This document shows, piece by piece, positions 23,300-61,228 of a stretch of DNA of 64,000 bases. The notes beneath the pieces are model-generated. The model saw only the letters and a program-made list of their open reading frames with translations, was not told the DNA's origin and did not search any database. The position numbers were made by a program, and so were the translations under genes. The stretch spans positions 33,356,001-33,420,000 of the forward strand of contig OX597832.1 in NCBI GenBank assembly GCA_951406725.2. The letters run 5' to 3'. Positions within the stretch are counted from its first letter, which is position 1; each line of letters starts with the position of its first letter. Origin of the DNA: Octopus vulgaris (taxonomy: Eukaryota).

Positions 23300-24152
23300 C
23301 GGCGGGGGGAATGGTTGTTTTAGGGGGTTAGTGGCAGGTAAGAGCGACGATTTCTTGACGAAACTCCGAGCGTCAGGAAGAATCACTTAAATGGTCTTTT
23401 CCGGAGGACTATGGAGGCGACGGGGCCTATGGATACCTTCCAGAAATCAGTGCCACCGTGGAGCTCTGCCGGTTCGAGACAAGCTCTATAAATACAGAAG
23501 TACTGTCAGACAGAGCTGTTCGAGCAGTGCGCTGGGCAACAAAATCGCCCTGCACGCACTCGTCCAGAGTCCGTGCATTACCGGCTTGTGGAGATTTGTC
23601 GAACAGCTGTCACCGCGTGTAGGACGGATCCTGTTATCAGGCGAGTCCATCGGGAAAATGGCTCCACCGCCTTCCTTTGGCTGGGAAGGAAAGAGAGTTT
23701 TCCTCTGTCTCGTGGCTATGACTAAGCAGTTTGGTGGACGAAACTGAAAGGACTGAACACAGATATTTACCTATTCGGCGAAAGCCTCATCGATTTTTTC
23801 AAGTTCCACTTGGAAAGAAAAGCGGAAGTAGAGGGGGATGTAAAATTGTTGAAAGGTGGGTGAATGCGGTGGGGATGGTCCGTGTAAAAGGACCTACTCT
23901 GATCATTCGTTTTTTGAACCGGAGGAGTTCAGAAGGAGAGAGGCACCTGCTGAGGTGCACCTGGCGATTGGCATAACCAGATTCTGTGAGGTTCTGCGGT
24001 TGTCTCTATGAGGAAATCCCCTCTTTGGGGGAATTTTATAGTTTAATTGTTTTGTTATGTCTACTTTTTTCACTTATTAACACCCCACATGTCCCTTGAA
24101 TTGTAACGTCCCTATCTGTTTTGTGTTCGACCTTAGTGGTCAATAAAATAAA
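23300..24152 (+). mobile_element. 5'-truncated Tx1-clade LINE: ORF2 C-terminus (zinc-finger region) plus 3' UTR
   Basis: HRGALPVRDKLYK..QSCSS..ALHALVQSPCITGLW resembles the L1/Tx1 C-terminal CCHC region. 3' UTR has hairpin aaatccccc-tcttt-gggggaattt, then gacc-ttagt-ggtc and AATAAAATAAA. Confidence 0.8.
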
Positions 24153-27189: not shown

Positions 27190-29710
27190 CTAAAGATGCC
27201 AGATAAAGTAATCATTATAATGTTCGGTAAAGGAACGCATTCCTTCAGAAATTTTGAGAACAAGGAAATAAAAGAGAATATCAACATGGAATCGCCTAAA
27301 CTTAATGACGTCACCGGGGAGAAAAATATTTCGTCTCTAAGCAACGTCAAAACTTTAGGTGTCGACAAAGAGAACAACGGCAACAGCAGCAGCGGTGACA
27401 TCATCAGCAGCAGTGACAGCAGCAGCAGTAGCAGCAGCAACAACAACAACAAAAATAACAACAGCAACAAATAAAATAGAAATAAAACATAAAAAAGCAA
27501 ATATCGCTTCTGTTTCTTTCGCATCAGCGACGAGAAATATGGAGTGCATCCACACAGATAAAGAACAATCAAAATTTGTTAGGAAAATGTTACAAGAGAT
27601 GGGATAAGGGTGGCTCTAAACCCTCCATCGGACGTGATAGAAAATATCGCAAGATACACGGTCACATACCGTTGCACCGGAGTCAAGTTTCGGCGGGTGG
27701 AAAATGCTCTGGAGAGCGAAATAAAAAAATGACTTGGGCACGTGTGGGAAGAAAAGAGCCACATCACTTGAGGAAAGAAGTTTGGAACCATTGAGGTGAG
27801 ATTTGGGACGAAAGAAGGAGCTAAATGTCATTCTGCAACCACTTTGATAAATTACAACATTTTCATAATCCCGAACTATCGTGGCGAATGTCTTTCCAGG
27901 ATTAGGATGATGAAGGTGCCGCCAGAAATATCCATTGCCTGGTTAGTGGCGGCTGTCTTGGTAGGTTTAGAAGAAGATGAATTCACAATACGGGAGGTCA
28001 AGAAATTACCTCAGCAAACTGGTTAGGTATAGGTATAGAAGTGACCTTGCAATGCAAGCAGGTCCATATAGACCAGCTGCCCCATCTAACTGACCTTCCA
28101 GATAAGACTCACCTGTCAGTGTCTGAGGAGGGTAGACAGCCATAATGCCATAACACTCAAAGGTTTCCTGCCCCGAAACAAAGTAAAATGAAGTCTCACC
28201 GCAGCCAACATTACAAATACCACAAGTGCTAAATCATAGACAAGTGCACAAGCCTCCTACACCTCCTCTCACATCCACGCTCACACCCACTCCCAAACCA
28301 AGACAAAGAAGGAGTCTGCCATCTTTTGCCACGGAAAAGCAAGATTCTCCTGAATGCCCTTCCTCCCAAACCAACATCTGCTGCTATGAGATGGAGAAGA
28401 AAGAGCTTAATGATCAATAGATCACAGTGACAAAAGGGAGTAGGCGAATGGGGAGGAGATTACATAGCCTTACTCCAGGAAATTAACGAAAACTGTTTCT
28501 GAAATCACAACTGCAACACAATTGACAACCACTCCAACAAAAACAGCAAGAACAAGATCAACATCATCAACAACAGCATGAAATTAAAGAAACATAGAAG
28601 CAACGGATTACGGAACTTCGAAAATATAATCATCAAACTGTAGACGAAATGTCTCCATCAATTTCCCAGTTGTGAATAAGTAGAACAATGAATTGAGGGA
28701 TTTTGTAAATCAAAATACAAACAGTATAGAGAAAAAGGGAAAGGAATTTGAAAAGTTCACCCCCAAACCCCCAAGGACAGACCCTTAATTAAAATGTCGT
28801 CAGACGCTGACCAAACCATTGATAAAAGGCTGTTGCAAGCCCTTTCTAAAACTTTTTCGCCAGTAAAGAAGCTCGGAACTTTCGGGCTTCACGAAAACCA
28901 AGGTGAGTAACCTCCTTATTTTCTTTCTTCGACTAGTATGGCGGTGCTGAGAATGGGGTGTGTGAGCGTACGTGGACTGGCATTGGCCTGGAAACAAGGT
29001 CACTTGCTCAATGATCTCAGGTCGCTTAATTTGGATGTGGCTGCCATTAGTGAAACAAGGAGCTCCGGAAAATAAGCTCTAGTATCCATTTTCGAAGACT
29101 ACAAGTTATTCTAATTTTGTGGTCTATCGGGATCGGGTGGTGGTGTAGCAGTGTTACTCCGGAAATCCTTAGATCTCCAAGTACGGGCTATCTTCTTGGA
29201 TCCGGATGGTAGGTTGGTGGTCCTCAACGTGAACGGAGGTGTGGGTGGCGCCTTTACACTAGCGGTGGTTTATGCTCCAACAGGGGCTGGAAGGCCAGAT
29301 TTCTTCAGGCGTCTAGAAATATTCTTGGGAACGTCTTGAACTTTAGTAATAGCGGGGGACTAGAATAGTATTTTGGAAGCACGAAAGGACTGTCTGGGTT
29401 TAGCACATAGTAGAACAGGGTGTAAAAGCCTCGAAAACCTACTCATGACTTTCCATCTTTCTTGACAAGCACCGACTGGATTTCCCGGTTATGCCAGTGC
29501 GGACATAGAATAAACACAACTGGTCATCCAGATTGTATTTAGACAGAGTATTTGTTAGGGTGATGGGTAGGCGAAGGTAGCAAACTTTACTTCGTACCTA
29601 GACAGCCTACCACGGCTTTCGGTGACGGACGCGAGATTCTGCGAAAAGCTGATTACAGCCTCTGAAATACAGGAGGCGATGAGTGATTGCACAACTCGCA
29701 AATCACACTT
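27190..29710 (+). mobile_element. Decayed Tx1-clade LINE 5' half: ORF1 remnant plus APE endonuclease of ORF2; 3'-truncated
   Basis: ORF1 remnant IPNYRGECLSRIRMMKVPPEISIAWL. ORF2 from ATG 28938: GCVSVRGL..LDVAAISETR..GGVAVLL..DPDGRLVV..VYAPT..IAGD*N..LDRVF, then ITASEIQEAM..RKS. The 5' boundary is uncertain and may extend to ~26937. Confidence 0.88.
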
Positions 29711-57074: not shown

Positions 57075-58278
57075 CGTTCTTTCCTAAAGTCGATATTCCG
57101 TTAACATGAAATACAAGTTCAGTATGTAAGCATAGGTGGTCGCGTACGTATATATATATATATATATATATATATGCAAACATACATACATATGTGTGTT
57201 TGTGTGTGTGTTGTGTTTGTGTGTATGCAGGTGTATCTGTTTTTCATTCACTGAAAACATTCGGCGTTATCTAATTTGCAACAAGTTTCGTTTGGTTAGC
57301 AACAAACGCAAGAATTCAACTCAAAAATGAAGCTGCAGAGTTCTTCATTCGCTGTAATCTTTTAAGATACGAATTTATAATCCCATGCTGTTAACCTCTC
57401 ACGTGATGACATTTGCAACACATCCGTTGAAATATCAAACAAAAACAAGCGACATTAGAAAAATGAAGAATTTAGAAAATTTTAACCACCATGTTTTTAA
57501 ATCTAATTACCAAAATCTCGAAATGTTTTACTTCTTTTCGTTTTAATAAAAATCATTTCCTTGATATATTTACTTGTTTGCTCGTAAGTATTCTTCACTT
57601 CTTTTTGTTCTTATTCTTCAGAGTGTATTCTTGCAACGAAAACTTTCCAACTGAAGAGCATTCTCTAATATTATAACCAAAACATCTGTACACCTCTCAG
57701 ACTTCAATAACCCGTGTTTAATTTGCTTCCTATATATATACCATATTCTCTTTTTCTTTTTTTTTTCTTTTCTATCAACTAGTAGTACTAGAAGAATCCA
57801 AAGACATCTCCGATTAACTGCAAATGCTGTTAATGAAATAAAACTTCTTTAAAAATAAAAATACAGGAATTTGTGCAGCAGAGAGAGAGAGGGAAGACTC
57901 TCATTACGCTGTCGTTATTGCTCCCAAGAACTCATACATAATTACTTCCAGACCGATCCACCTGTATGAAATATTAGAACTCGATTCATCTCACGCTGCT
58001 CGTAATTATCCTTTTTGTATGTGTCTCTGTGATATAATGGCTGACTGCATCAGATTATAGGAATACTGGACGTCATACAGTGAATGCAATATACTGTATT
58101 AAAAGTAAACATTAATGACAGCATGGTAAAGCGTCTACCTTGGAAACAACCTGGTTCAGGATTCAGTCCCTTACGCGTCGCCTTACGTGGCCTCTGTAAC
58201 GAGGAGTCGCTCTGTGAGCGAATTTGGCAGGTGGAAATTGTGTGGAATCCCGCCCTATATTTGATATATATATATAAA

Positions 58279-58751
58279 TACTCTTTTACTCTTTTACATG
58301 CTTTAGTAATTTGATTGCGGCCATGCTGGAGCACCGCCTTTGGTCGAGCAAATCGACCCCAGAACTTGTCATTTGTAAGCCTAGTACTTATTCTATCGGT
58401 ATCTTTTGCCGAACCGCTAAGTTACGGGGACGTAAACACACCACCATCGGTTGTCAAGCGATGTTGGGGGGACAAAATCAGACACAGACAGACACACACG
58501 TACATATATACATATATATATATAATAGAAATATTAAAATTACTAAGTCTCTATAAAAGAGAACAACGGCAGCGTTTCCGGAAAATAATAGTTATCGCCA
58601 TACTAATAAGTTATATATATACAACGGTCTTCTTTCGTTTTCCGTCTACCAAATCCACTCACAAGGCTTTGGTCGGCCCTAGGCTATAGTAGAAACCACT
58701 TGCCGAAGTGGGACTGAACCCGGAAACATGTGGTTGGTAAGCAAGCTACTT
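58279..58751 (-). mobile_element. Family-B tRNA-derived SINE, body and tail; its head is displaced to 61192-61231
   Basis: Sense reads ccacatgtttccgggttcagtcccact..tctactatagcctagggccgaccaaagccttgtgagtggatttggtagacggaaa, then an internal microsatellite, then a tail ending agtaaaagagta. Confidence 0.9.
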
Positions 58752-59070
58752 TATTTCAACAATTTTGCCACTAGGGCAGCACACAGAGTAGCTACGGGCT
58801 GGACAAGGACATTAATGGATGATGGTGGTGGTAGATGAAGATGGTGATGGGAGAAGTCAAAAAGCGCCCGCCGACTCTCGCTTCTCTAAAACAATGTTCA
58901 ATAATTACATTTAATACAATGATTACAAATTACAAATTTTAGAGTAGGCAATAAACCTCCTCTTCAACCTGTTACAAAAATGTTAAAATTAACATTCAAT
59001 TACAAATTTTACAAATTTTAGAGGAGGCAATGAACCTCCTCTTCCACATGTTACAAAGATGTTACACAAC

Positions 59071-60281
59071 CTATGTGACACGGCCGACCATCGCTCTTGC
59101 CTCATTGAGGCAAGACTCGCTGGTCAGGTCAGTGTCCAGAGGTATAATCTCGAAGGAGTCCGCTGGGAAGGAACCCACGATCCTGTGTAGATCAGCCCTT
59201 CTCACGACCTCCGCAGCTAACTGCCAAGGCCACTCGGGGTTCTCCGTACAGGTTCGGAGTATCTCCCAACGTCCTTTCTTTCTCACTTTTCTTACGGTGC
59301 TTTCCACCTTTTCTCCTTTAGAAAAGAGGAGCACAAAATCTTCCACGAATTGTCCCTCAGGCGGCACACCCGCCTGAGAGGACCCGGGATACTCGGGAAC
59401 CGCCGTCTGCGTGTAGCAATCCGCCGGTGGGGCTCCGTTTCTCTTTTTTTTCTTTTTCTTCTGGCCCTGGGCCACGGGAGGCTGAGGTTCCGGAGCTGTG
59501 CGCACCGGGTTCTCCCCTCCCGCAGCTTTCAGGTCCTTTGGTGGGTCGCCATTGCTCCCCATCTTTCTCTTTCTTTTGGAGGAGGATTCCCCCCCCTCAC
59601 TTTGCTTCTCTCCCTCCATTGAGGAGGCAGGGAGAGGCTCCAATATCAGCCGCTCCAGGATCCTACTCTGGTCCCTGGGGCAGCTCTTCTTGATGTGGCC
59701 GGTCTCCAAACACAGATGACACTTGGGGGGGGGGGGCGTCCCTCAAGCATCACCGGATACTTGGACCCGGCCATTCTCAAAACGTCCGGCAAAACCAGAC
59801 TCTTGGCTGACTGGGTCGATAGGGTTAAGGTAGCCTTAGACCCCTCCCAATCAGCCGCAGGCTGTATATTGACATTTAGGATTTTTGCGTCCCTGTCACC
59901 CAGACCCCGGCGGATAGAGTCTTCTATCCACTCGGGTTCAATGCCGGGTGGCAGGCCGCAGACCCATAGTCTTGTCAATTTTTCTCCCTTGTAACTAGGG
60001 AGAAACAAGATTTCTTTGCCCTCAATGGGCTTGCTTGCAAAATCGCAAGCATCTTTTGGGGAGTCAAACAGCAACCAAACCGTTGCGTATTTGGCTCCCC
60101 GTGTGATATATTTCACGGCTGGCATGTGGTTTGCCAGCTCTTCAATAATTTTCGCCTGCGGAAACACCATGATAGCGTTGAGCGACCTTGAATAAGTCCT
60201 CAGTACCACGGTCTTATCCTCGAGCTGTTTGACATATTTTTTGGGAGCTTCCAGCTCCCAAACAATCAATTCCTTTGCCAT
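59071..60281 (-). CDS. Tx1/L1-type ORF1 (gag-like) protein with CCHC zinc knuckle, ~403 aa if one frameshift is corrected
   Basis: aaaaATGG at 60281 (MAKELIVW..). LPSYKGEKLTRLWVCGLPPGIEPEWI is homologous to the Tx1 ORF1 at 27.9 kb. A frameshift in the 12-nt homopolymer at 59725-59736 joins EGRP to KCHLCLETGHIKKSC (CX2CX4HX4C). TAG at 59071. Confidence 0.8.
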
Positions 60282-60558
60282 TTTTAACAAAAAATATAAA
60301 TACAGTTCGAATAGGAAAAACACAAAAGTGATAGAAAGAGGGAAGAAAAAACAAAATGGAAACGAGAGTTACAATAAAAACAGTTCGGAGTTCAAATGAA
60401 GGATAGCTAGAGGAAGAAGTTCAAATGTGGCACAGAATTATTTTTTTTTTTGCCGAAAAGGTAGTCCAGGCCAAACGTCACGGCAATCCTTGGTAATTCT
60501 GGTGCTTGTAAAAACAGTCCACGAATATCCTTGGTGCCTCCTGGTAATCCAAATGTGC

Positions 60559-61136
60559 AATATTCCACGTGTGGTAATCCAAAGCGAAATTGGTGCTCCA
60601 ATGAATCGAATTATTTTTGATGAGGGCTACACCTCTTCAAAAAACACACTTCTCACTAAAACGTGAGATTTTAAATACAACAGGCAGAAAAATATATCCG
60701 AAGCAAAGCGAAGTTTTATTACCCGCAAAAAATTATTAACGCTAATTAACGTTGACGCCAAAAAGTATTAATGGCAGGCAATAAACCTCGCTAAGCCTCT
60801 AAAAATATTCAAAAAGTCCTACCTGCTGTTGCCAAACAGTTCAATATTCCACGTGTGGTAATCCAAAAGTGAAAATTGGTACTCCAATGAGTCAAAAATA
60901 TTTCTGAGGAGGGGCTACGCCTTCCTCAAAAAAACACAATTTCTCACTAAAAAGTGAGACTTTTAAATACGCCAACAGGTAGAAAAATATATCCGAAGCA
61001 AAGTGAAGTATATTACCCGCAAAAATTATTAACACTAAATAGCGTTGTTAATGTTAAAAAGTATTAACGGCAGGCAATAAACATCATTAGGCTTCCAACA
61101 ATATTCGAACGCCCCACCTGTTGACGTAAAATGTTC
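60559..61136 (-). repeat. Two tandem ~290-bp monomers in the element's 5' UTR
   Basis: Units 60559-60842 and 60843-61136, each starting aatattccacgtgtggtaatccaaa on the plus strand. Confidence 0.92.
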
Positions 61137-61191
61137 AATAATTCACGTTAAAACGTGACATTTGCCGGAGCGAAAAAAAAAACACGTCCGC

Positions 61192-61228
61192 TTGGTAAGC
61201 AAGCTACTTACCATACAGCCACTCCTGC

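Follow-up and report, generated by a model that had tools for sequence, protein, structure and literature searches.

The insertion in the window

The window analysed here is a stretch of 64,000 nucleotides of Octopus vulgaris DNA (positions 33,356,001 to 33,420,000 of contig OX597832.1) in which a tRNA-like SINE is split, as a preliminary description of the letters had claimed, by an insert of 2,440 bp on the minus strand (58752-61191). The 18-mer TTGGTAAGCAAGCTACTT brackets the insert and occurs in the window at 58734-58751 and 61192-61209 only; the same two sites are returned when up to three mismatches are allowed, and shuffled sequence gave a mean of 0.10 matches, with two matches in 0 of 100 shuffles. 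Alignment to an empty SINE by blastn places the severed 5' piece of the host head, 23 nt long, at 61232-61210 on one side of the insert and the remainder, comprising the body and a B-box-like part, at 58733-58616 on the other, both on the minus strand. We take TGGCTGTATGGT in the head to be A-box-like, and GGTTCAGTCCC in the remainder presumably represents a B-box-like part. When 11 empty SINE heads were given to ARAGORN, nine weak tRNA-like folds were returned, and only with relaxed scoring. An Rfam search gave no match at gathering level. A second very high-copy short repeat, seen from read depth, adjoins the tail of the host SINE (58236-58460), and the window also contains decayed Tx1-like LINE pieces (27590-29560 and 23350-23830, both on the plus strand) that preserve parts of ORF1, of the endonuclease and of the ORF2 C-terminus.

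Read from its 5' end, the insert starts at a TSD copy (61192-61209) that overlaps a target-like 5' end of the element, and continues with a 5' UTR of 910 nt (60282-61191) holding an internal tandem duplication of about 300 bp (61148-60839 and 60854-60555, 81%). It is followed by ORF1 (59071-60281), with two predicted RRM domains, a CCHC zinc knuckle (KCHLCLETGHIKKSC, 59680-59724; zf-CCHC E 0.051 in the window copy), a basic linker and a C-terminal domain of about 100 aa. The knuckle was described correctly, but ORF1 is not the single open frame first reported, as the frame changes at a run of 12 C (59725-59736, a G run on the forward strand), giving one frame of 211 aa (60281-59646) and a second that carries the knuckle and the C-terminus (59724-59074). 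The length of this run differs from copy to copy of the lineage to which the insert belongs, here called H, and ORF1 is uninterrupted in relatives (a single 403-aa frame in L005, about 400 aa in others); either slippage or an assembly error could account for the frameshift. The 3' UTR (58752-59070) has 319 nt, in keeping with the earlier estimate of about 320 bp, and includes a 65-nt duplication and a terminal hairpin, TGCC-CTAGT-GGCA (58766-58778), which is common to two further elements described below, LINE Z and lineage U. The last bases of the element are GAAATA, poly(A) is absent, and the AATAAA that had been read as its terminus instead straddles the junction, its final two A being bases 1-2 of the 3' TSD copy (58734-58751). 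Neither endonuclease nor RT coding was found within the 2,440 bp, again as first described.

The perfect 18-bp TSD is present and is the longest among those seen (7-17 bp in 13 short or 5'-truncated copies, with peaks at 16 and 9 bp in long copies), although part of it may be junction homology, since in the alignment the element's own 5' end is target-like. The window copy carries 17 private substitutions in 2,429 sites. In a check of reads for an empty allele, joints that skip the insert came from generic SINE copies and not from this locus specifically. H family sequence was covered in four read runs carrying four different organism labels. A look-up of recorded RNA data sets listed none containing it; of four runs guessed to be RNA, two gave a single contig of 2.4-2.5 kb across an H family member of about 95% identity, to which we give no weight as evidence because the RNA nature of the runs is a guess.

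Lineage H and its target site

We define lineage H as the ORF1-only elements that include the window insert, and searched the genome with the insert alone, scoring the best 40 of 2,293 candidates. Among these 40 at least 11 near-full-length copies, the window copy included, match at 89-100%, and many more distant copies accompany them, so that a genome search of the kind first proposed does return multiple copies of the same structure. In many copies of about 2.0-2.5 kb, with TSDs of their own, ORF1 runs directly into the same 3' UTR, which bears out the suggestion that the unit moved without ORF2. H is thus a multi-copy element whose sole coding content is ORF1, as in the non-autonomous ORF1-only LINEs of the HeT-A, HAL1 and Ag-Sponge type, and in most of its copies ORF1 is broken.

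All 30 loci listed from the insert-only search end in GAAATA or AAAATA, followed by AAGTAG, at one base of the SINE head, and of 50 places with an exactly matching tail the first 30 likewise all lie at the SINE site, several of these loci being the same. The fixed 3' junction of H is therefore GAAATA/AAGTAG, and its targeting is precise to a single base; the flanks are not random but recur at one SINE position, so that the targeting of tRNA-like SINE sequence, first raised only as a possibility, is confirmed. Genome-wide we counted 662 exact junctions, against none in the control and 75,867 empty SINE heads, whilst in an older SINE variant 124 junctions compare with 4,800 empty heads. About 3e-5 of positions match the exact site, and its occupancy is 0.9%. 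Upstream sequence was read at 60 of the first 62 junctions listed, where 41 tails are H-type, 15 are Z-type and 4 are short or other.

LINE Z as a candidate helper

Z is a LINE of 5.45 kb with ORF1 and ORF2, the copies of which are 98-99% identical, and its complete 3' ends lie at the SINE site in 24 of 24 cases (one lacks one A). ORF1 (487/488 aa) and ORF2 (1,140 aa) are both open in two copies, L235 (G000:C6:125592989-125598415) and L241 (G000:C6:33228717-33234140). The domains of Z ORF2 are an endonuclease, an RT and a zf-RVT, and its best match among solved structures is human L1 ORF2p (E 3e-48); its nearest named relative comes from Argonauta hians (62%). No named Tx1 reference appears among the 120 ORF2 homologues listed or among the PDB matches. 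As in the Tx1 clade, the ORF2 of Z is L1-like, with an APE endonuclease, RT and a C-terminal zinc domain, and Z and H share an RRM/CCHC type of ORF1 and a preference for a target sequence. We infer the label Tx1 from this ORF1 type, the L1-like ORF2 of the helper and the targeting, rather than from an RT tree.

The tails of these elements share a 13-nt hairpin with a 4-bp stem and a 5-nt loop, placed 10-17 nt from the 3' end, which is present in 65 of 89 distinct tails (mean in shuffled sequence 1.9, maximum 6) and shows compensatory double changes of its stem (TGCC/GGCA to CGCC/GGCG, TGTC/GACA and GGCC/GGCC). Hairpins of this kind characterise the 3' ends of stringent-type LINEs and SINEs, according to excerpts of PMC3747384, and the hairpin is likely to be a recognition signal for ORF2p. 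Outside a tail motif of about 35 nt there is no alignable stretch of DNA between H and Z, and their ORF1s are about 26% identical, both of which argue that H is not derived from present-day Z.

The same SINE site is used by a second ORF1-only lineage, U, of about 1.5 kb (L214-L233, for example G000:C7:13472371-13473843), with 16 of 17 complete copies at the site and a one-base variant in the remaining one. In the ORF1 tree described below U lies outside H and groups with autonomous-type ORF1s.

Two other Tx1-like LINEs, X and Y, were found in one stack of elements and were considered as helpers. LINE X (L035) was rejected, since 1 of its 20 copies lies at the SINE site. LINE Y (L036), which stands upstream of an H tail, was also rejected, since it is a nested insertion there and a further 29 copies, each with the Y tail, end at other sites. 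The Y family (L054-L083) is 92-98% identical and forms tandems of its own about 5.3 kb apart, and its 3' flanks can be grouped into a few recurrent sequence classes, which suggests that it prefers other targets. At L055 a LINE Y is nested in an H-like 3' UTR that ends off the SINE site, the sole off-target H-like tail seen. An ORF of 1,071 aa encoding endonuclease, RT and, following the RT domain, a PHD finger (L038:3072-6284) adjoins an H stack.

On these sequence comparisons Z is likely to be the helper of H. It could be argued instead that H is ORF1-only and site-specific as described, but depends on a different LINE of the L1/Tx1 group, which may be extinct and may have had an H-type ORF1. 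The low identity between the ORF1s of H and Z would fit such a history, as would the presence of X and Y as further Tx1-like families and the fact that the genome searches scored 25-40 candidates each; moreover, the tail motif is not by itself specific to Z, because the non-targeting LINE X has a similar hairpin-like GAAATA tail. However, every ORF2-bearing element read at a junction is of the Z lineage (DNA identity 78-97%), the site holds 1 of 20 copies of X and, leaving out the C7 stack, 0 of 29 copies of Y, young copies of H, U and Z stand adjacent to one another, and H and Z tails are both present in the older SINE variant. We therefore regard a helper other than Z as improbable.

Stacks and 5' ends

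Directly after 8 of 30 tails stands another element and not the SINE remainder, and by distinct loci 7 of 28 tails are stacked in this way, against an occupancy of 0.9% (binomial p 4e-9, or 1.5e-4 at five-fold occupancy). The C7 stack (G000:C7:13456213-13498283; L033-L036, L043) comprises at least 17 units, from H, U, X, Y and Z-like elements. Its 17 junctions span 42 kb beneath one SINE head, and no remainder of the SINE turned up across the 67 kb read there. Adjacent junctions in this stack have target variants in common, and these variants also start dispersed copies. The C7 stack may be a source locus or a trap. Of the five stacks that contain Z, three have it as the 3'-most unit, one has it as the last unit seen, and one has it at an internal position.

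At L028/L032 a private target variant is found at all three junctions, which shows that one site was reused sequentially. Template jumping was rejected as the sole cause of stacking for this locus on the same evidence, and for L040, where a truncated unit has its own TSD; at other stacks it is possible. Many full-length copies begin with target-like sequence that is unlike their own 3' target and is common to several copies (L002-L006, L009, L023), from which we infer that transcripts start inside an upstream copy of the target and anneal to the target at integration. Short hairpin-like additions, each an inverted copy of the first element bases, stand right after the TSD at the 5' junctions of L013, L015, L020, L028 and L039; they are common to several copies and are possibly inherited snap-back products.

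These 5' ends with inherited target-like sequence, together with the presence of SINE on both sides of every copy, would also be expected if SINE and insert had been copied as one composite unit, in which case the flanks would be alike through common descent and not through targeting. Against this, the host SINE variants differ inside one H subfamily (five GCTAACC and four GCTTACC among 9 copies) and number 10 among 25 copies of Z, TSD lengths and 5' truncation points vary, and the site is common to three unrelated element lineages and two SINE variants. In L020 and L028, private variants are present on both TSD sides. The differing hosts, the varying TSDs and these private variants indicate independent target-primed insertions of H, and copying as a composite, now largely refuted, is very improbable.

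ORF1 domains, selection and age

Residues 1-210 of ORF1 were modelled from a 13-row alignment with a pLDDT of 85 (41 for a single-sequence model), and the top fold matches of the model are tandem RRM proteins. The zf-CCHC family was matched in 13 of 13 aligned ORF1s, the L1 transposase Pfam family gave no match in ORF1 at E<=1, and a protein atlas placed ORF1 near CCHC and ZCCHC3-like clusters (ZCCHC3-RBD-like, score 0.89), which we treat as a lead only. The H ORF1 product is thus predicted to be an RNA-binding protein. The idea that H is HAL1 proper was rejected, given the missing L1 transposase match, the tandem-RRM fold matches and the lack of poly(A).

Across codons 1-180 of ORF1, dN/dS is 0.10-0.43 in 55 pairs, 54 of them at p<0.05, for 11 copies picked for an open N-terminal frame; the pairs are not independent. 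The C-terminal domain is weakly constrained (dN/dS 0.34-0.87, mostly not significant). By this method purifying selection appears to keep the N-terminal half of ORF1 as a functional protein. Synonymous divergence between H subfamilies reaches about 0.9. The earlier picture of a young half-Tx1 family therefore holds for the copy and fails for the lineage, and to judge from these divergences the window copy is a young insertion of an old lineage. Some copies appear to be mosaics: L005 and L028 differ with a dS of 0.92 in the N-terminal part and 0.12 in the C-terminal part, and L014, L039 and L160 have 5' ends in common despite different ORF1 subfamilies, a pattern that suggests module exchange.

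The closest named relative of H ORF1, and the sole find of a profile homologue search, is a protein of Octopus sinensis (59% identical). In a quick, unrooted ORF1 tree, built without a one-clade test from 56 rows out of 75 hits (duplicates dropped, Z thinned to four), H forms a separate clade of 40 rows on a long branch that includes the O. sinensis protein, with an SH-aLRT of 100. The distance of H from Z ORF1, its separate clade and the purifying selection all argue that H is an old lineage and not a recent deletion. That the insert is a one-off internal deletion of an ORF2-bearing LINE, as the frameshifted ORF1 of the window copy and one H copy with ORF2 between ORF1 and tail might suggest, is refuted by the copy survey and has almost no probability left, since the ORF2 of that copy, the sole one in the H clade, is part of a LINE Y nested there, which brings an ORF1 and a 3' end of its own, the other 39 rows are without ORF2 (one a database protein taken without its genomic context, the rest 38 genomic units), and dozens of ORF1-only copies are dispersed with TSDs.

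Proposed mechanism

We consider it highly probable, from sequence comparison, that the window insert is a copy of the multi-copy ORF1-only lineage H, ending at a fixed base of the SINE head, and was likely copied by TPRT with ORF2 protein supplied in trans by Z. In the proposed mechanism the Z endonuclease would nick the bottom strand at CTACTT/A and so set the insertion site, and Z ORF2p would recognise the hairpin on H RNA. H may retain its own ORF1p in order to coat its own RNA in cis, which would aid competition for ORF2p. Transcription starting in an upstream target copy would give daughters that inherit a target-like 5' end; annealing of this end at integration could rebuild a usable site, at which later elements may insert at the same locus and give rise to stacks.

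We also put forward, tentatively and as something we would not yet rely on, a wider hypothesis of three tiers of parasites. One L1/Tx1-group LINE lineage would use the SINE head as a harmless landing pad across the turnover of SINE subfamilies, and at least two independently derived ORF1-only lineages would out-breed it, their own ORF1p capturing ORF2p by way of the 13-nt hairpin. With the target at the RNA 5' end, sites would be reused far above chance, giving multi-family stacks of more than 40 kb that might serve as source loci and allow module swapping.

Why ORF1-only LINEs retain ORF1 has so far been more asserted than tested, and the combination of an intact young candidate helper, an apparent tail signal of about 35 nt and insertion at one base would make the need for ORF1 in cis or in trans assayable by a single junction PCR. 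A site-specific LINE moving 2-kb protein-coding passengers would be of interest as a model of targeted insertion. The SINE head is added to the known targets of L1/Tx1-group elements and, relative to the literature searched, H offers a fourth clade context for ORF1-only elements, with no change to host biology as far as shown.

Comparison with known systems

The Jockey, L1 and CR1 clades have given rise to ORF1-only LINEs, namely HeT-A, HAL1 and Ag-Sponge (excerpts of PMC5786205), and their protein has been suggested to multimerise with the proteins of the helper (excerpts of PMC5786205; PMC5753468). As far as these excerpts describe them, H resembles such elements in keeping ORF1 alone and in taking ORF2 from a separate autonomous LINE, which for H is presumed, but differs in its ORF1 with two RRMs and a CCHC knuckle, its lack of poly(A), its stringent-type 3' hairpin and its single-base SINE target. 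H and U also differ from them in forming two separate ORF1-only lineages with one apparent helper lineage. At telomeres, the ORF1-only and autonomous elements HeT-A, TART and TAHRE are arrayed head to tail, and tags taken from upstream sequence mark their 5' ends. The stacks of H and Z likewise mix ORF1-only and autonomous elements and have upstream-derived 5' tags; unlike those arrays they are interstitial, formed within a SINE by insertions that left TSDs, and are not known to serve the host.

Tx1-clade LINEs target RNA genes, microsatellites, and DNA or LTR transposons (excerpts of PMC4494074; PMC3706591), with Tx1L in Tx1D, Keno in U2 snRNA, Kibi and Koshi in microsatellites and Tx1-Mar in Mariner-N4, a target also used by the non-autonomous SINEU (PMC4494074, in part), and with Dewa in tRNA-Leu spacers (PMC3706591, in part). 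RRM/CCHC ORF1s are associated with Tx1 in the available portion of PMC5203782. Within the excerpts of this literature on Tx1 targets (PMC4494074; PMC3706591) no SINE-targeting Tx1 element was found. By the same partial accounts, Z shares with Tx1-clade LINEs an APE-type machinery and a fixed target in a multicopy repeat, other transposons being among such targets. The Z system is unlike the named Tx1 LINEs in its target, the head of a tRNA-like SINE present as about 80,000 exact sites, and in its passengers, half-LINEs that code for protein and are more numerous than the apparent helper (41 against 15 tails of 60).

The host SINE resembles the octopus tRNA-derived CORE-SINEs OR1 and OR2 (named in excerpts of PMC4824008 and PMC4758252) in being tRNA-like and octopod, a likeness of type and by description only. 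The full-text literature searched, mostly non-subscription, gave no ORF1-only family of Tx1 type and no octopus LINE specific for a SINE head, and of the 80 L1-Tx1 consensus families counted in an octopus repeat annotation of 2026, none is so described in the excerpts of that source (PMC13282606), a separation made by description only. The H/Z system works like HeT-A or HAL1 with Tx1-type targeting added and, relative to the literature searched, appears to be a new combination of known kinds.
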